DNA of 64,000 nucleotides from Pedosphaera sp. (GTDB lineage: Bacteria > Verrucomicrobiota > Verrucomicrobiia > Limisphaerales > DSYF01): NCBI GenBank assembly GCA_017853715.1, contig JAFMIZ010000002.1:20128-84127 (forward strand). The letters run 5' to 3'. Position 1 is the stretch's first letter, and each line of letters opens with the position of its first letter. Shown here in pieces: positions 24,993-34,327 of the stretch. Position numbers and translations under genes: made by a program. The notes under the pieces are model-generated. The model ran no database searches, was not told the DNA's origin, and was given only the letters and a program-made list of their open reading frames with translations.

Positions 24993-25838
24993 GTGAAACA
25001 CACATATAAACAGGGCTTTCAGGGTTTCACCTTGATCGAATTGCTGGTGGTCATTGCCGTCATCGGCATTCTGTCCGCCCTGCTGCTTCCCACCTTGGGC
25101 CGGGCGAAGCAGAAGGCGTGGGGCATCTACTGCATGAACAACCACCGGAGTTTGGCACTGGCTTGGCGGATGTATGCCGACGACAACTCCGACCAGATCA
25201 CCTACGCCAGCGAATACCCGTGGGATCCATCCACCTACAGCCGTGCCTGGGTCACCGGCACACTGGACACGAATCCTAACAACCGGTCCAACTGGGACCC
25301 CGATCAGGATATCACCAAGAGCCCGCTCTGGCCGTACTGCGGCAACAGCCTGCGCATCTGGAAATGTCCGGCAGACGACTCCAAAGTCGTGGTTGATGGT
25401 GAGGAGAAACCCCGCGTTCGCAGCATGTCCATGAACATCTACCTCGGCGGCTGGGGCGGTGGCTACGGCGGCTGGGGCGAAGAAATCACGCGCTGCCGAC
25501 TCTACATGAAGACGTCCGACATCAATGACCCCACACCCAGTGAGATGTTCGTGCTCTTGGACATGCGGGAGGACAGCATTGATATGGGAAACCTTTTGGT
25601 AAACATGTCCGGCTGGCCAACCGACACCCAGGAATACCGCTTCTGGGATTTACCGGGGGTCTATCACGCCGGGTCCTGCGGATTCTCCTTCGCTGACGGC
25701 CACTCGGAGATCAAAAAATGGCGCGACCCGCGAACCACGCCTCCCCTCGTGCGCGATGGATTCGTGAACGACGTCTTCATGTCCCCCGACAACCCCGACA
25801 TCACTTGGTTGCAGCAACGGGCCACGCGCCCCAAGTAG
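24993..25838 (+). CDS. prepilin-type N-terminal cleavage/methylation protein with H-X9-DG (DUF1559-like) domain
   Basis: QGFTLIELLVVIAVIGILSALLLP is the class III signal (G/F cleavage site, Glu at +5). The C-terminal YHAGSCGFSFADG fits H-X9-DG exactly. Confidence 0.85.
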   Translation: MKHTYKQGFQGFTLIELLVVIAVIGILSALLLPTLGRAKQKAWGIYCMNNHRSLALAWRMYADDNSDQITYASEYPWDPSTYSRAWVTGTLDTNPNNRSNWDPDQDITKSPLWPYCGNSLRIWKCPADDSKVVVDGEEKPRVRSMSMNIYLGGWGGGYGGWGEEITRCRLYMKTSDINDPTPSEMFVLLDMREDSIDMGNLLVNMSGWPTDTQEYRFWDLPGVYHAGSCGFSFADGHSEIKKWRDPRTTPPLVRDGFVNDVFMSPDNPDITWLQQRATRPK

Positions 25839-29121: not shown

Positions 29122-32100
29122 TTAACCACCGACACCCACCAACTGACGCCTCGCCTCCTCAATCCATGCCTCATCGGGCAGCGCATACGGACGGAACGTC
29201 TCCAGCCAGCCTTCGTGGCCGTTCCAGAGGATCGCCCGGTGCAGCCCCAAATTGTTCGCCTGCGGCGACTCGATCAGACTCGCCGAGTCGTTCGCGCTCA
29301 TCTGGAACACCACGCGCATTTCAAATTCACTGACCGCCTTGCGGCTCAGCATGCGCATCAGGTTGTTGTAGGTGTCGCAGGTCGCGATCACATGGAAACC
29401 CAGCCCCGCGCCTTCCGTGACCAGCTGGTTGAACTGCAAACCCGGATTCGCGCCCGCATCGGCATCCAGCGAGAAACTCATCTCCTCGTCGAACTTGAGC
29501 TTCTTGTTCCGCTGCAGACCGTGAACCAGCAAAAAGGTCTCGGGCGCATCAGAGCCCGCATTATCTGCGCGTTGCTGCTGCTCGGCGGCCAAGTCGTTCA
29601 TCACCTCTTCCACGTCACCGGGGCGGACCAGTCTCACGTCATGCGGAATGATGGAGACGGCCAGCTCCAAGAACTTCGCCTCCGCCGAGTCCGGTGCGCT
29701 GCAATCAAACACCAGGAAGCGTGCGCCCGACTTGGGATACTGTGCCGCGAGTGAAATCAACGAGACCCCCAGCATGGCCAAAGCCGCTTCGTCGCGTTGA
29801 CCAATGATCAGGAGATGGCTGCCACTGGCGCGACGGAACAGGGCCTCGGTGGGGCCTTTGATGGAATTGGGCGCCCCCAGCCAAACGCGGGCGGCGGGCA
29901 CCGTCTCCCTGGGTGGCGAGGCGAGGGCAGCGCGCAGCATAAGATTGTCACGCACTTCAGCCGGGGCATTGCCCTCGAACACGATCGGCGCGCGCTGACC
30001 GAATTGCTTCAGTTCCGCAACCGCATGGGCCTTCTCCAACCACTGATCACGGGCCTGATCAGGCAGCCAGACGACTTGGAACGGGCTGTTGCCCTGAAGG
30101 GCGCCCGCATCGTCATTATAGATCGCCTCGCCCGGCCGGGAAAGCAACCGCGGCGCGGGGTTGTCCTCGTTCATGATGAGATACGCGTCGGCCTCGTTGC
30201 ATTGCAGCGCGATGCGCACCACCATCTGGCCCATCGTCGCACGGGCCAGCGTGTAGGCCCCGCCGAGCGTCTGCGAACCGAGGATCACGTGAATCCCAAA
30301 CGCACGACCCTGACGAACAATCCGGTCGAGCAGCAAGGACGCCCCCTGCGAAACGCGGTCATCCTCCACAAACAACTCCTGAAACTCGTCGATCAGGAGC
30401 AGCACGCGCGGCATCGGCTCGGCGCCGCCGGCGCGCTTATAACCGGCGATGTCCTGTGCGCCGAGTTTCCGGAACAGATCGCCGCGCCGCTTCAATTCCT
30501 CGTCCACGCGTTGCAACACGCTCAGGCCAAACTCACGATCGCTCTCAATGGCGATGACGCGGGCATGCGGCAGCTTCTTCGTCGCGTAGCACTTGAACTC
30601 GACGCCTTTCTTGAAATCCACGAGGTAGAACTCCACCTGCTCCGGACTGCACCACAGCGCCAGATTGGTGATGATCACGTGGAACAGAGTGGATTTGCCG
30701 GACCCCGTCTTGCCCGCGACGAGTGCGTGCTGACGGGTGCCCTTGCCGAGTGCGAGATACTGCAATTTCGTGGCACCCGTGCGGCCCACCGGCACGCGCA
30801 GCTCACTGGTGGTGTCGAGACTCCAGAATTCATTCTTCCCCGGAGCAACCTCAACGAAAGGCATCTCCACCCGGTTCGAATCAATGCTATCCTTGCCGAT
30901 CTGGTGCAGCAGCCGTGTGGCCTGCTCGGCGCCCGGCGGTCCGTCGAGCGTCAGCTTCAAGCCATCCCAGTTGGCATTCGCAAGGGCGAACCCCTCGCCC
31001 TTGGGCACGACGCTGAGCATGTTCTGGCGCAATTCTTCGGGGATGAACTCCATCGGCGCCGTCTTGCGCTGGTCCCAATGAATCAGCAGATGCACCCCGC
31101 AACGCGGTCCCGCAGCGGCAATGTTCATCAAGCGTTTCACCGCCACGTCGCTGAAGTTCGCGGGGAAGTCGGCGATGACGAGGAAATGGTATTTTTCGGC
31201 CATGCGCCCGGCCTGCGCATTGTATTCGGCGAGCGTCTCGTATTCGTTGCGCAGATACATCTGCGTGACCTTTTCGATGTGCTCGTTGAGGTCGACCAGG
31301 CGTTGCTCGAACTGCGCCTGCTGCGTCCAGATGCGGCTGTTGATCAACCGCTCCTCGAAGTCGGCCAGATGCATGAGGCCGGCAAAATTCTGTCCGAGCC
31401 CCACGGGATCAAAAATCGTGAACGCCAGGCGTCCCGGCGGAGCGCTGGTCAACAGCCGCAGAATCAGGTTGTTCAACGTGGCGATCACGCGGTCCTGCCC
31501 GGCCTGCTTGCTCTCGAACAAGAGCGACGCATGGCGGGGGACCTCCAGAAGCAGCGGCACCGTGAACCGACGCGGCCCGGGCAAAGTAAACCGCTCATCC
31601 TTGAGCGTGACGCCCGACAGCGTTTCGATGTCCACCGACACGCTGGCAAAGCGGGCGGCATGCGCGAAGTCGTCCGGCAGCGCGAATTGCTTCCAGCGGT
31701 CCGACGCCCAGTCAGGAAAGAGCTGCTCGGCCCACTGCGTCGTCGCCTCGATTTCAGCGTAGGCGGGCAGAACGATGTTCTGCCAATCCGCGGCCAAGGC
31801 CGCCAGGATTTCGTCACGCGCGGCAGTCAACCTGGCCAAGCCGTCGCGCTGAGCAGCCTCCAATTGAGCTTTGCGTTCCAAGGATTGCTCGGTGAGCTGA
31901 CGGACGAGCGTGGCGTGCTGGTGCTCCACCACTCCGAGCCGATGCAGCCGCCGCCCGTCGGTGACAGAATTCAGCCGCCGAGCCCGATCTTCCAAGCGTC
32001 GGCCCCAGTCGTCCCGGAGCGCTTTTGCTTCGACCTGCTTGTGTTTCCACAACCGGTTCAATTCGCCGATCTGACTGGCGTGCGTACTGGTGATCCTTTC

Positions 32101-33054
32101 CGTCTCAGCGGCAAAGCTGGCATCCGCTCTCTGCGCGCAGATGTCATGCAGTCTGGCGGCATCCGCCAGCGCGTTCGCCGCCGCTTTGGCCGGAACCGCC
32201 GCCAGCTTCCTGCCCAGGAAGTAGAGCGCGAAGACCAACACCAGTGCGCCTGCCACCCCCCCTCCCGTTGGCGGCAAAGGGGCGGCGTTGAAATCAAATC
32301 TCCGCAATGCCGGCACCAATATGAAGGGCGCGGCAAGAATCACCGGAACCCACAACCAGATGGGCAGCATCTTGAAGAAGAGCGGCAGCACGCGCGCGTT
32401 GATGGCGCCAAGCTGCTTGGACGCTTCCGCCAGCCGGGCGCGCATGATCTCAAGCAACACATCCTCGTGCTTAGAAACATCCAAAGAGGCCGGAGCCGAG
32501 GTGTGGGAAACCAATCTCGCCAGCGCTCCGTAAGCACCCAGTGAAGATGGAATATCCGCCTGCAGTTGCGCCAATTCGGCTTGGGCCTGAGCAAGATTGG
32601 TGTTGAAGGTCTCGTAGCGGGCCTTGTTCGCCGCCGTGTCGGTTTCGCGCACGCGATCCGCCTCGAGCAAATCGCGCTGTATCGCGAAGGTGTGGCGGCC
32701 CTCTTCAGCATCGATCTCCGCCATCTTGGCGATACGGGCGCTTCCCAGCGCCTTGGTCAGGCGCGCCTTGCGACTGGCGTATTGGGCCTCAATGCCGTTA
32801 CGGCGACGTTCCGTCTCCTCGCGAGCCGACTCCATATCCGTGGCAAAGCGGGAACGTTCAGCTTCGAGCGCCTGTTCGTATTGGGCACGCACGCGAGCTG
32901 TGCGCGTGGAATAATCCTTCTCCGCCGCCGCACTGCGCGTCACGACGTCGCGCACGCGGTCGCGCAGCTGGCCGAGGCGTTCGACGATGGCGCCGACACC
33001 CGCGAGCTTATTCGCAGTCGGAGCGGACTTGGTTGAGGGCTCGTTCAAGGGCAT
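29122..33054 (-). CDS. membrane-anchored multi-domain FtsK/SpoIIIE-family ATPase (EssC/EccC-like candidate)
   Basis: About 1310 aa. Canonical Walker A HALVAGKTGSGKST is at nt 30688-30717 and Walker B VLLLIDEF at about 30382-30405. It is flanked by two FtsK-like modules that lack the P-loop (SLLFESKQAGQDRVIATL and HLLIIGQRDEAALAML). Hydrophobic segments span aa 224-283. Long coiled-coil regions lie before and after them. I prefer the ATG at 33054; the track starts at a TTG at 33057. Confidence 0.85.
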   Translation of the reverse strand: MPLNEPSTKSAPTANKLAGVGAIVERLGQLRDRVRDVVTRSAAAEKDYSTRTARVRAQYEQALEAERSRFATDMESAREETERRRNGIEAQYASRKARLTKALGSARIAKMAEIDAEEGRHTFAIQRDLLEADRVRETDTAANKARYETFNTNLAQAQAELAQLQADIPSSLGAYGALARLVSHTSAPASLDVSKHEDVLLEIMRARLAEASKQLGAINARVLPLFFKMLPIWLWVPVILAAPFILVPALRRFDFNAAPLPPTGGGVAGALVLVFALYFLGRKLAAVPAKAAANALADAARLHDICAQRADASFAAETERITSTHASQIGELNRLWKHKQVEAKALRDDWGRRLEDRARRLNSVTDGRRLHRLGVVEHQHATLVRQLTEQSLERKAQLEAAQRDGLARLTAARDEILAALAADWQNIVLPAYAEIEATTQWAEQLFPDWASDRWKQFALPDDFAHAARFASVSVDIETLSGVTLKDERFTLPGPRRFTVPLLLEVPRHASLLFESKQAGQDRVIATLNNLILRLLTSAPPGRLAFTIFDPVGLGQNFAGLMHLADFEERLINSRIWTQQAQFEQRLVDLNEHIEKVTQMYLRNEYETLAEYNAQAGRMAEKYHFLVIADFPANFSDVAVKRLMNIAAAGPRCGVHLLIHWDQRKTAPMEFIPEELRQNMLSVVPKGEGFALANANWDGLKLTLDGPPGAEQATRLLHQIGKDSIDSNRVEMPFVEVAPGKNEFWSLDTTSELRVPVGRTGATKLQYLALGKGTRQHALVAGKTGSGKSTLFHVIITNLALWCSPEQVEFYLVDFKKGVEFKCYATKKLPHARVIAIESDREFGLSVLQRVDEELKRRGDLFRKLGAQDIAGYKRAGGAEPMPRVLLLIDEFQELFVEDDRVSQGASLLLDRIVRQGRAFGIHVILGSQTLGGAYTLARATMGQMVVRIALQCNEADAYLIMNEDNPAPRLLSRPGEAIYNDDAGALQGNSPFQVVWLPDQARDQWLEKAHAVAELKQFGQRAPIVFEGNAPAEVRDNLMLRAALASPPRETVPAARVWLGAPNSIKGPTEALFRRASGSHLLIIGQRDEAALAMLGVSLISLAAQYPKSGARFLVFDCSAPDSAEAKFLELAVSIIPHDVRLVRPGDVEEVMNDLAAEQQQRADNAGSDAPETFLLVHGLQRNKKLKFDEEMSFSLDADAGANPGLQFNQLVTEGAGLGFHVIATCDTYNNLMRMLSRKAVSEFEMRVVFQMSANDSASLIESPQANNLGLHRAILWNGHEGWLETFRPYALPDEAWIEEARRQLVGVGG

Positions 33055-33217
33055 CAATGTTGTTCACGGCAGCATTCACGCCGCCCATCAGTTCTTCGAT
33101 GAATCGCTTCTCGAATTCAAGGGCCTTGGCATCGCGCCAGGAATCCTTGGTCGCGGCCCAGTCTGCGACCAACTGCTTGGTGAGTCCAAGCAATCTGTTC
33201 TTGGTGGCGCTGGTCAT
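33008..33217 (-). CDS. 69-aa helical protein with W-x-D hairpin motif (WXG100-like, paralogous to the 90-aa protein)
   Basis: An ATG at 33217 opens MTSATKNRLLGLTKQLVADWAATKDSWRDAKALEFEKRFIEELMGGVNAAVNNIDALERALNQVRSDCE. Composition and codon usage look genuine. SWRDAKALEFEKRF shares W0, D2, F8 and F12 spacing with the 90-aa protein. The 3' end overlaps the ATPase start by 47 nt. Confidence 0.55.
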   Translation of the reverse strand: MTSATKNRLLGLTKQLVADWAATKDSWRDAKALEFEKRFIEELMGGVNAAVNNIDALERALNQVRSDCE

Positions 33218-33275
33218 CGGCAGTGCGGGAATGGGTTGATGGCGCGGTGGAGTGGTGGGAACACAAGTCTCGCCA

Positions 33276-33368
33276 TCGTCCTCGTTCTCGATTCGGACCC
33301 CGTGTACGAGGACGAGGAGGAGGCATGGTCGAGATTGCGGAACGCTCCAGCACTCCAACACTCCAGCG
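33276..33368. repeat. intergenic 10-bp perfect hairpin plus 8-bp tandem repeat (ctccaRcR x3)
   Basis: tcgtcctcgt (33276-33285) pairs with acgaggacga (33306-33315) across a 20-nt loop. ctccagca ctccaaca ctccagcg lies at 33345-33368. Both sit between the 181-aa and 69-aa genes. Confidence 0.6.
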
Positions 33369-33392
33369 CACCGCTCATTCGTCCGTTCACGG

Positions 33393-33938
33393 TCATGGGT
33401 TCGATTCCTCCCCGCTTTGCCCGTTGGCCGGCGGTTCGCCCACAGGCTTCGGCGCAGAACCGGCCACGGATATTTCACTGTATTCAGCCAGGGTCTTGAT
33501 GACTTGATCCAAGTAGGCCAGGGCGTTCGCCAGATCGTGGGAAATGTTGTGCCGGAATTTCTCCACCTGCTTGGCCACCGGCTCAACCCGCTGGTCGTAT
33601 TGCCGGTTCCAAACCTTGACCACCCGCAGCTTATCCTCGGCGGCGCGCAACTCGTGGCGTGCCCTTTGCACTGCCTGCTGTTGAACAAAGGAGGCGTCGC
33701 GCATCCCGGAAATCTGCGCGCTGAACAACTCCTGCTGGCGCATCTCCAGCTCCTTGTGCTTTCGCCGAATCTGGCCCTCCCAAAAGGTGATGCGGTCGTT
33801 CTCGAGCCACATCCGCGTGCGCAACACCTCTTCTGACACCTCGTCGATCACCCGCCCCGCTTTCTCGCGATACACGATGAGCCGCGAGCGAAAGGCTTCA
33901 ATGGCTTCAAGCGAAGTGACTTTGGCGCGTTCAGGCAT
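33393..33938 (-). CDS. 181-aa helical protein containing a WEGQ (W-x-G) motif and a disordered acidic/Pro-rich tail
   Basis: I chose the ATG at 33938 (MPERAKVTSLEAIEAFRSRLIVYREKAG). The protein contains ...RITFWEGQIRRKHKELEMRQQELF... and ends in SAPKPVGEPPANGQSGEESNP. It sits between the two small W-x-D genes, on the same strand. Confidence 0.65.
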   Translation of the reverse strand: MPERAKVTSLEAIEAFRSRLIVYREKAGRVIDEVSEEVLRTRMWLENDRITFWEGQIRRKHKELEMRQQELFSAQISGMRDASFVQQQAVQRARHELRAAEDKLRVVKVWNRQYDQRVEPVAKQVEKFRHNISHDLANALAYLDQVIKTLAEYSEISVAGSAPKPVGEPPANGQSGEESNP

Positions 33939-33953
33939 GGGGGCGACGGTGAT

Positions 33954-34036
33954 AGTTGCAGGTTGCAGGTTGTAAGCTGCCGGTTGGCTCCGCCGCTGCA
34001 TCTGCAACCTGCAGCTTGAAACCTGCAACTTGAAAC
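33954..34036 (-). promoter_or_regulatory. long imperfect inverted repeat (intercistronic hairpin) between the 90-aa and 181-aa genes
   Basis: The reverse complement of the left arm agttgcaggttgcaggttgtaagctgc (33954-33980) is gcagcttacaacctgcaacctgcaact. The right arm is gcagcttgaaacctgcaact (34011-34030). The gcagcttNNaacctgcaac core matches at 17 of 19 positions. The spacer is about 30 nt. The tgcaggttg / caacctgca motif occurs four times. Confidence 0.5.
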
Positions 34037-34054
34037 GGGCGGGCGGTCATCGGG

Positions 34055-34327
34055 TCAGTGTTGATCGAGATACTCCTCGATCCGCTTCGCTTTGCGGAGC
34101 AGGAAGGGCGTTTGGACGTTCGAGGCTTCGATAAAGCGCTTGAGCACTTTCATCGTGTCGCGGAATTCCTCGGCGAACTTGGCGTGCTCCTGGTCTGACC
34201 ACGTGTCGCCGAGGGCGGCAAAGCGCGCTTGCAGGAGTGACATCCGGTTCTGCAGCTCGATATTGAACCGCTTGAGCTCCTCGGCGAACCGGCGGACTTC
34301 GCCGGGGTCCATTATGGCTTGTGGCAT
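34055..34327 (-). CDS. 90-aa WXG100-like (ESAT-6/EsxA-like) helical hairpin protein
   Basis: An ATG at 34327 is preceded by AGGAAG 4 nt upstream. The sequence is MPQAIMDPGEVRRFAEELKRFNIELQNRMSLLQARFAALGDTWSDQEHAKFAEEFRDTMKVLKRFIEASNVQTPFLLRKAKRIEEYLDQH. The central TWSDQEHAKFAEEF aligns with NWEGQAFSRFEEQF of S. aureus EsxA (sequence from memory). Size and predicted helix-turn-helix layout fit WXG100. Confidence 0.7.
   Translation of the reverse strand: MPQAIMDPGEVRRFAEELKRFNIELQNRMSLLQARFAALGDTWSDQEHAKFAEEFRDTMKVLKRFIEASNVQTPFLLRKAKRIEEYLDQH

Follow-up and report, generated by a model that had tools for sequence, protein, structure and literature searches.

A conserved four-gene cassette of Verrucomicrobiota linking a WXG100 protein to a membrane-anchored EccC/EssC-like ATPase

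A WXG100 protein and an EccC/EssC ATPase are the two components common to all type VII secretion systems (T7SSs), and the pairs found in Gram-negative bacteria are described as 'not yet confirmed functionally' (PMC10765036). Does such a pair, joined by two further small helical proteins, then represent a pared-down relative of these systems? The question is raised by four co-directional minus-strand genes of Pedosphaera sp. (contig JAFMIZ010000002.1), located within a stretch of 64,000 nucleotides that was analysed as a whole and is hereafter called the window. The original prediction, made from the DNA letters, considered them a minimal type VII-like secretion locus. We find that they form a real, stand-alone cassette that is kept across Verrucomicrobiota and that is a stripped-down relative of type VII secretion. 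Below, WXG90 denotes the 90-residue protein, M1, M2 and M3 the three modules of the ATPase, and labels of the form L0xx and P0xxx related loci and proteins of this analysis. The four open reading frames (ORFs) were all recovered as originally described:

34055..34327, minus strand: WXG90 gene, WXG100 family; 90 residues, with the putative hairpin motif W43-S-D45 (W-x-D, not W-x-G)
33393..33938, minus strand: gene of a 181-residue protein, predicted to form a long helical hairpin (helices 3-77 and 80-160, disordered tail 162-181)
33008..33217, minus strand: gene of a 69-residue helical protein that probably represents a truncated, WXG100-like partner; invariant W20, W27, D29, F35 and C68, C-terminus ..DCE
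29122..33054, stop codon included, minus strand: gene of the membrane-anchored EccC/EssC-like ATPase; 1310 residues from ATG

The 69-residue gene and the ATPase gene overlap by exactly 47 nucleotides, also as predicted, while the remaining two intergenic gaps measure 116 and 175 nucleotides. An alternative ATPase start, TTG at 33057, lies one codon upstream and would yield 1311 residues.

To what extent the four genes belong together was assessed in a one-genome-per-species scan, which returned at least 584 relatives of the ATPase; the 80 loci examined are the matches listed. Using an iterative ORF search, the order WXG90, 181-residue gene, 69-residue gene and ATPase was recovered in 71 of about 75 loci with upstream DNA, and the full cassette persists in L084 and L085, where the ATPases are only 41-46% identical. 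The linkage on which the original reading depended is consequently well conserved. The 181-residue gene is present in 73 of the 80 loci, without exception between the WXG gene and the 69-residue gene, and the latter overlaps the ATPase gene or lies at most 25 nucleotides from it in 21 of 24 loci with an assignable start, a count limited to 24 because the poorly conserved ATPase N-terminus hampers start assignment. By contrast, conserved flanking genes were not detected, no flanking family being common to more than 4 of the 80 loci. As the order is maintained down to 41-46% ATPase identity with unconserved flanks, the cassette itself is the unit of selection. The exceptions are of two kinds: insertions that split the cassette (L013, L039 and L063), and loss or relocation of some of the small genes (L031, L033, L036 and L052). 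In L039, two small ORFs resembling a toxin-antitoxin pair (L039:3178-3797) separate the 181-residue from the 69-residue gene, and in L013 and L063 insertions of about 2 kb are placed between the small genes and the ATPase.

The labels of the listed loci are mostly Verrucomicrobiota, comprising Limisphaerales, Chthoniobacterales, Verrucomicrobiales/Akkermansiaceae and Methylacidiphilales, and the closest ATPase relatives carry verrucomicrobial labels, congruent with the earlier assignment of the DNA to a genome of the Planctomycetes-Verrucomicrobia-Chlamydiae type. In metagenomes, the ATPase family is represented by about 31 clusters at 62-100% identity and by more distant members, whereas relatives were absent from the viral contigs of IMG/VR and no full-length match was found on plasmids. 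A neighbour-joining tree of the ATPases with order labels is star-like with loosely grouped orders, and the labels of metagenome-assembled genomes (MAGs) are unreliable, so vertical versus horizontal inheritance is not settled by it. Some cassette-bearing MAGs (L005, L015, L018, L074, L011, L022 and L049) are titled Bifidobacterium, Klebsiella, Acidobacteriota-type genera and others, which reflects either wrong labels, bin contamination or real occurrence outside the phylum.

We then turned to the identity of the ATPase. Hidden Markov model (HMM) scores, searches of the PDB and Foldseek together speak for an EccC/EssC-type enzyme and against FtsK, TcpA or another ATPase of conjugation, a placement made by comparison of scores. 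The NCBIfam models EccCa, EssC and EccCb score 114, 110 and 99 bits, respectively, versus 34 bits for FtsK, all of them far under the equivalog cut-offs. Sequence searches of the PDB put T. curvata EccC, EccC5 and B. subtilis YukB first, with FtsK and TcpA behind. An AlphaFold2 model of residues 440-1310 was of moderate confidence, with a predicted local distance difference test (pLDDT) of 76 and a predicted template modelling score (pTM) of 0.51; its top Foldseek match is the EccC cytoplasmic domain 4NH0 (E 5e-24, 905 columns), followed by D2-D3 structures of EccC/EssC at about 1e-14 to 1e-17 and by FtsK/TcpA at about 1e-9 to 1e-10. In this model M1 to M3 appear collinear with D1 to D3 of 4NH0, an EccC structure with three ATPase domains. 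The search with PF01580 that the original prediction had proposed returned a single match, at residues 751-930, and the preference for EccC/EssC over FtsK/TcpA went in the anticipated direction. The parts of the protein are as follows:

32392..33054, minus strand: residues 1-221, poorly conserved N-terminal region, a putative coiled coil judged from composition, at the position of the FHA domains of EssC
32188..32391, minus strand: residues 222-289, transmembrane hairpin with hydrophobic segments 222-251 and 262-289 (Kyte-Doolittle)
31705..32187, minus strand: residues 290-450, second poorly conserved helical linker, weakly matched to the N-terminal region (hhalign 62%)
30820..31704, minus strand: residues 451-745, module M1, degenerate alpha/beta domain; no Walker A, SKQAGQDR at the P-loop position
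30025..30819, minus strand: residues 746-1010, module M2, catalytic FtsK/SpoIIIE domain; Walker A 30688-30717, Walker B 30379-30405
29125..30024, minus strand: residues 1011-1310, module M3, degenerate FtsK-like domain; IGQRDEAA replaces Walker A, candidate substrate receptor

The two hydrophobic segments are present in 59 of 70 family members, which agrees with the membrane anchor proposed earlier, and are separated by a loop of approximately 10-20 residues. No Pfam domain, FHA included, was found in the N-terminus. The proposal of one canonical P-loop together with two degenerate modules was also borne out, for M3 through homology to M2 (hhalign probability 96.9%) and for M1 through the structure model only. 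Walker A (AGKTGSGKST, residues 780-789) and Walker B (VLLLIDEFQ, residues 884-892) of M2 are conserved across the family, and the Walker A lysine is lacking in both M1 and M3. Compared with an EccC alignment using hhalign, M2 matches D1 at 99.2%, while M3 matches D3 at 71% and D2 at 49%; by analogy to EccC D3, M3 may thus serve as a substrate receptor. For M1, hhalign detected no similarity to M2 or M3, to a P-loop domain or to the DUF domain of EccC. In the AlphaFold2 model it is nevertheless predicted as one of three alpha/beta domains, and it shares homology with what lies upstream of the active domain in the ATPases from H. pylori and Caballeronia.

The conservation of these parts is graded, with a median identity to the window ATPase of 82% for M2, 54% for M1, 52% for M3 and 23% for the N-terminal 450 residues, where conserved columns amount to about 1%. 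The top-conserved stretch of M2, residues 931-992 (window 30079-30262; GGAYTLARATMGQMVVRIALQCNEADAYLIM..RPGEAIYND), is modelled by AlphaFold2 with pLDDT below 50, and order may arise there only upon oligomerization or partner binding.

Profile evidence marks the 90-residue protein as a genuine WXG100 member. It scores 29.4 bits against PF06013, above the Pfam gathering score of 27.3, and all 70 orthologues collected match this family (best E 1.2e-12). The best PDB match of the WXG90 profile is H. pylori HP0062 (3FX7/2GTS; E 2e-10, full length), followed by B. anthracis EsxB, S. aureus EsxA and streptococcal EsxA-like proteins, and the alignment with the solved hairpins HP0062, EsxB and EsxA spans all 90 residues. 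The solved structure of HP0062 is a homodimer of helical hairpins that bend at WRD, and its gene lies near an FtsK-like gene (PMC3397514, PMC4978471). At the putative turn, WXG90 has W-S-D and the family W-Q-D, so the glycine of W-x-G is replaced, as it is in HP0062. Together with the PDB matches, this makes the EsxA alignment drawn in the original prediction sound. The protein is also well conserved: with a median of 71% identity across orthologues it is surpassed only by the catalytic module of the ATPase (82%), which suits a cofactor of the machine better than a fast-evolving effector. Kyte-Doolittle scans revealed no hydrophobic segments in any of the three small proteins.

Are the remaining two small proteins of the same kind? 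The 69-residue protein is probably a relative of WXG100 that has been shortened at its N-terminus, as suggested by profile matches that are weak, reciprocal and in register. Three of its invariant residues (W20, W27, D29, F35 and C68) occupy the W, +2 and +8 positions of the WXG signature. With the HMM of the family, five of five foreign WXG100 proteins rank directly below its own orthologues, aligned on W-x-D, and in the reverse direction the WXG90 HMM matches one 69-residue orthologue, weakly, at 15.8 bits. PF06013 is the commonest Pfam match of the family, yet recovered for only 4 of 73 members (best E 9e-4), in addition to one WXG100_2 match (6e-5). The N-terminal helix is about 18 residues shorter than in WXG100 proteins, the median identity to orthologues is 43%, hhalign against the WXG90 family gave a probability of 3%, and a PDB profile search yielded chance-level coiled-coil matches only. 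The likeness to WXG noted originally is plausible, with in-register matches in both directions, while the strength of these matches, the Pfam count and hhalign fall short of a proven assignment. The family end ..R-x-D-C-E (window 33008-33016) is nearly invariant, its penultimate cysteine being one of the five invariant positions; this tail might represent a docking tail or a modification site.

For the 181-residue protein the case is different. AlphaFold2 predicts a single long antiparallel hairpin (pLDDT 84) with its turn at residues 78-79, and the WEGQ that the original prediction took for a WXG motif (residues 53-56) is present, although placed by the model inside helix 1 and away from the turn. 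In the family only its W is conserved, and the Q mostly. None of 72 members matches PF06013, and the protein is not a WXG100 member in the usual sense. The median identity to orthologues is 40%. Weak HMM matches of the family to WXG proteins are inconsistent in register, and Foldseek with the model returned only generic antiparallel coiled-coil hairpins, none at E<1e-3. A PDB profile search produced weak matches to YscO and V-ATPase subunit D amid chance-level coiled coils. The idea of a stalk of the FliJ/YscO kind gained no support from Foldseek and was not refuted by it, the matches being generic long hairpins (YscO with template modelling scores of 0.61/0.68), again without any E<1e-3. It could be that the protein is a lengthened WXG hairpin, on alignments of weak statistics. 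Residues 11-70 weakly resemble the N-terminal half of WXG100 proteins, with W44 on the WXG tryptophan, and residues 117-154, ending at the invariant Y153, weakly resemble the WXG100 C-terminal ..EEYL end. Among the three small families, hhalign probabilities are 2-6%, and a common origin is not claimable from hhalign alone.

The surroundings of the cassette in the window are of housekeeping character, with mfd, an HflX-like GTPase, glycoside hydrolases, a glycosyltransferase and a halogenase-like flavoprotein as neighbours, and the G+C content is uniform over the cassette region. The mfd gene flanking the locus in the original prediction is indeed there, but this adjacency is not conserved, recurring only in the near-identical contig L001. 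No further WXG-like or cassette genes were found elsewhere in the window, and a promoter and terminator scan revealed nothing exceeding the expectation from shuffles. At 24993-25838 on the plus strand, the window encodes a 281-residue protein with an N-terminal prepilin-type methylation motif (PF07963), a kind that is abundant in Verrucomicrobiota/Planctomycetota and fits the taxonomy.

Relatives outside the phylum, of which three loci were examined, provide a second view of the architecture. The chromosomal locus of H. pylori is arranged as a 187-residue gene, HP0062, a 490-residue gene, a WHH nuclease, SUKH immunity, a 115-residue gene and an FtsK-like ATPase, the latter matching the family HMM in M1 (E 4e-9) and M2 (E 1.6e-54). 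On a Helicobacter sp. plasmid the order is WXG, HNH, SMI1/KNR4, a 77-residue gene and the ATPase. The mobilisable plasmid pSBC2-5 of Caballeronia sp. SBC2 carries vWA, WXG, genes of 436, 113 and 76 residues and the ATPase, followed by CARF, vWA, PP2C and a Ser/Thr kinase; here the WXG protein is 39% identical to WXG90 and the ATPase follows the M1-M2-M3 plan (E 1e-113 to the family HMM). Transmembrane segments are absent from the Caballeronia ATPase, and none is clear in the Helicobacter ATPases. A feature that distinguishes the verrucomicrobial ATPase family from the proteobacterial relatives examined is hence its membrane hairpin, flanked by long helical regions.

Small ORFs directly upstream of, or overlapping, the ATPase are observed in these loci too (L086:9093-9323, 76 residues; L087:6733-6966, 77 residues; L082:11481-11828, 115 residues). 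Their products have no detectable similarity to the 69-residue family, and the likeness is positional only. Two further proteins stand apart. P0033 (L083:5859-13385, 1659 residues) is a homologue of the ATPase in which an N-terminal Ser/Thr kinase replaces the helical N-terminus; an FHA protein and an FHA-kinase protein are its neighbours and no WXG gene was called, which suggests a phospho-regulated variant. P0406, of 359 residues and from a Chloroflexota MAG, combines a WXG domain 47% identical to WXG90 with a C-terminal Peptidase_C39_2-like (papain-like) domain, and may represent a WXG-led effector in a different phylum. Other longer proteins with an N-terminal WXG90-like domain are mostly apparent gene-calling chimeras.

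How does the cassette relate to systems already on record? The class as such is not new, contrary to what the original prediction implied, even if the latter conceded that bioinformatic records exist. In a table footnote, Zhang et al. 2012 (PMC3482391) noted stand-alone WXG genes with a three-domain YueA-like ATPase in Gram-negative lineages including verrucomicrobia, and Sutcliffe 2011, as cited in PMC6471051, listed WXG100 proteins in Verrucomicrobia, Lentisphaerae, Cyanobacteria and Proteobacteria. The architecture was thereby already recorded in silico, and the cassette is a member of the noted class: it shares with it a stand-alone WXG gene adjoining three tandem HerA/FtsK domains, the central one alone bearing Walker motifs. 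That class was termed 'mobile versions of T7SS', whereas we observe housekeeping surroundings, uniform G+C and no viral relatives; as signs of mobility, the flanks differ between genomes and relatives reside on proteobacterial plasmids. Neither the membrane hairpin and its long flanking helical regions nor the two additional conserved small genes feature in that record. The present analysis accordingly adds that the four-gene cassette is fixed, anchored in the membrane and widespread in the phylum, with conservation graded among its parts. A survey from 2024 that described new variants of the T7SS covered Gram-positives only (PMC11217815), and literature searches joining type VII secretion with Verrucomicrobiota retrieved nothing relevant.

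With T7SSa and T7SSb the cassette shares the predicted WXG100 hairpin linked to a membrane-anchored multi-domain FtsK/SpoIIIE ATPase, extra small helical partners, and the plan of EccC/EssC in which the N-terminus is inside, two transmembrane segments follow and the C-terminus is inside. The generic definition of a T7SS, WXG100 plus an EccC/EssC ATPase, hence describes the cassette in ATPase type, membrane anchor and genetic linkage; what is specific to T7SSa and T7SSb, namely core membrane components, ATPase architecture and export signal, is not present. Where their ATPases consist of a DUF domain and D1-D3 with D1 active, the cassette enzyme has three modules with the middle one active, and a poorly conserved helical region takes the place of the two N-terminal FHA domains of EssC. 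Neither the T7SSa core (EccB, EccD, EccE and MycP) nor that of T7SSb (EsaA, EssA, EssB and EsaB) is linked to the cassette, and W-x-G is exchanged for W-x-D in a diderm host and without a recognised export signal.

The HP0062/HP0066 cluster of H. pylori is similar in that HP0062 is the best solved match of WXG90, with the same W-x-D, in that the ATPase shares M1 and M2, and in that the Helicobacter loci have a gene of about 77-115 residues directly upstream of the ATPase. It differs by the WHH/HNH nuclease toxin and SUKH immunity genes between the WXG gene and the ATPase, and by ATPases that are shorter (about 820 residues) and without a clear transmembrane hairpin; homologues of the 181- and 69-residue proteins were not detectable in the Helicobacter loci. 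WXG-FtsK modules have furthermore been associated with the TerY-P triad (Anantharaman et al. 2012, as cited in PMC4978471). Of such modules, pSBC2-5 of Caballeronia shares a homologous WXG protein, an M1-M2-M3 ATPase, small ORFs in between and a 76-residue gene abutting the ATPase, but is a conflict operon with vWA, CARF, PP2C and kinase on a mobilisable plasmid, its ATPase having neither a transmembrane segment nor the long N-terminus.

Collectively, we lean towards the view that the cassette constitutes a minimal and self-contained module of type VII-like character (EccC/EssC plus WXG100) on the verrucomicrobial chromosome, and consider this somewhat probable. The ATPase is held in the cytoplasmic membrane by its two-helix hairpin, with the N-terminal helical region and the three modules in the cytoplasm, and would oligomerize, probably into a hexamer like EccC, with ATP being hydrolysed by the middle module. 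The degenerate C-terminal M3, most similar to EccC D3, could then provide the docking site. WXG90 would assemble into a four-helix bundle by pairing with itself, as HP0062 does, or with the 69-residue WXG-like protein, and this bundle might engage the ATPase as cognate substrate and/or obligatory cofactor, in the manner of EsxA in T7SSb; EsxA is secreted by all T7SSb systems and needed for toxin export, according to PMC13355648. The long hairpin of the 181-residue protein may be a further helical partner or adaptor. Finally, the helical proteins would be driven across the inner membrane, or act at it. Of this scheme, the homologies, the architecture, the membrane anchor and the conserved cassette are shown, whereas the hexamer, docking on M3 and translocation are inferred.

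Several observations weigh against this view. There is no evidence of secretion for this class, and across the 80 loci no equivalent of EssA, EssB, EsaA, EccB, EccD, EccE or MycP, nor an outer-membrane conduit, is linked; the absence of EssB/EccB, EsaA/EccD and mycosin genes had been pointed out originally, and Pfam and NCBIfam detect none in the cassette. The periplasmic loop of the ATPase, at roughly 10-20 residues, is short, and the ATPase-like fold of M1 is suggested by the structure model, of moderate confidence. By inspection of the family consensus, the canonical C-terminal export signals, YxxxD/E of T7SSa and HxxxD/ExxhxxxH of the sagEsxA-like subfamily (PMC3935865), are not evident in the small proteins: the WXG90 family ends in ..RIEEYLxQ[HR], which lacks an acidic residue at Y+4, and the pattern HxxxD/E is partial (A80, E84 and L87). 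The very high conservation of WXG90 is moreover unusual for a secreted protein. Lastly, the nearest outside relatives have soluble ATPases and are found in TerY-P and toxin-immunity contexts, so that the WXG-ATPase pair may ancestrally have acted inside the cell, which calls for caution over the word 'secretion'.

It is these last two points that give rise to the main rival, an intracellular ATPase-adaptor module in which the WXG-like hairpins are cytoplasmic regulators or adaptors of a membrane-tethered motor of the FtsK/HerA type, engaged in stress or conflict signalling and not in export, a role that has been proposed for WXG-FtsK pairs within TerY-P triad systems. We judge it rather unlikely. 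In its favour, the Caballeronia homologue shares one operon with vWA, CARF, PP2C and a Ser/Thr kinase and, like the Helicobacter ATPases, is devoid of clear transmembrane segments; P0033 carries a fused kinase next to FHA-domain neighbours with no WXG gene called, and WXG90 is conserved in the way of a housekeeping interaction partner. The PADLOC models SspH and mads8, which contain FtsK-like domains, match the catalytic module as well, but the matches are limited to the generic P-loop domain. The verrucomicrobial family however possesses a conserved membrane hairpin, and kinase, phosphatase, vWA, nuclease or other conflict genes are linked in none of the 80 loci, while the surroundings in the window are housekeeping. 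Moreover, regulation by kinases and FHA domains is common in bona fide T7SS variants too (PMC11217815).

Delivery of polymorphic toxins, in which the small proteins would target or chaperone toxins encoded elsewhere and equipped with WXG- or LXG-type N-termini, is less likely than the intracellular module and in our view improbable. Small helical partners are established in T7SSb for targeting LXG toxins (PMC9600955, PMC10801868); toxin and immunity genes stand between WXG gene and ATPase in H. pylori and on the Helicobacter plasmid, and P0406 fuses a WXG domain to a peptidase domain. For the cassette itself, however, neither the 80 loci nor the window have toxin or immunity genes in it or beside it, and the longer proteins led by a WXG90-like domain look mostly like the gene-calling chimeras mentioned above. 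A DNA translocase or conjugation-type coupling ATPase of the FtsK, TraB or TcpA kind, with the small proteins as accessories, is likewise less likely than the intracellular module, and very improbable. It is true that M2 falls in PF01580 and that FtsK and TcpA are found among the PDB and Foldseek matches, but each comparison of scores ranks them far behind EccC and EssC, and three modules with degenerate flanking ones are a hallmark of EccC/EssC. Relaxase, type IV secretion system or integrase genes are linked neither in the 80 loci nor in the window neighbourhood, and IMG/VR holds no viral relatives.

Returning to the type VII-like module, a bolder version can be formulated, which we put forward tentatively, as possible rather than probable: the cassette would be a functional, largely vertically inherited machine for protein export in the verrucomicrobial inner membrane and a third major branch of the T7SS in a classical diderm, with the EccC-like ATPase as its sole membrane component and with WXG90, the 69-residue protein and the hairpin of about 110 angstrom formed by the 181-residue protein as exported structural or cofactor subunits, and not as effectors. 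If so, an EccC-type ATPase alone would be capable of forming a translocation channel.

The T7SS has been experimentally defined in Actinomycetota and Bacillota only, and the literature itself leaves open whether Gram-negative WXG100/FtsK pairs secrete anything (PMC10765036). What Verrucomicrobiota carry is more than a sporadic pair, namely a fixed, membrane-anchored four-gene cassette, which thereby offers a compact and well-delimited target for genetics and biochemistry in cultured Verrucomicrobiota, where one may ask if an EccC-like ATPase and small helical proteins are enough for translocation. Should the module prove not to be secretory, it would instead reveal an intracellular role of WXG100 proteins, with bearing on the TerY-P and Helicobacter homologues.

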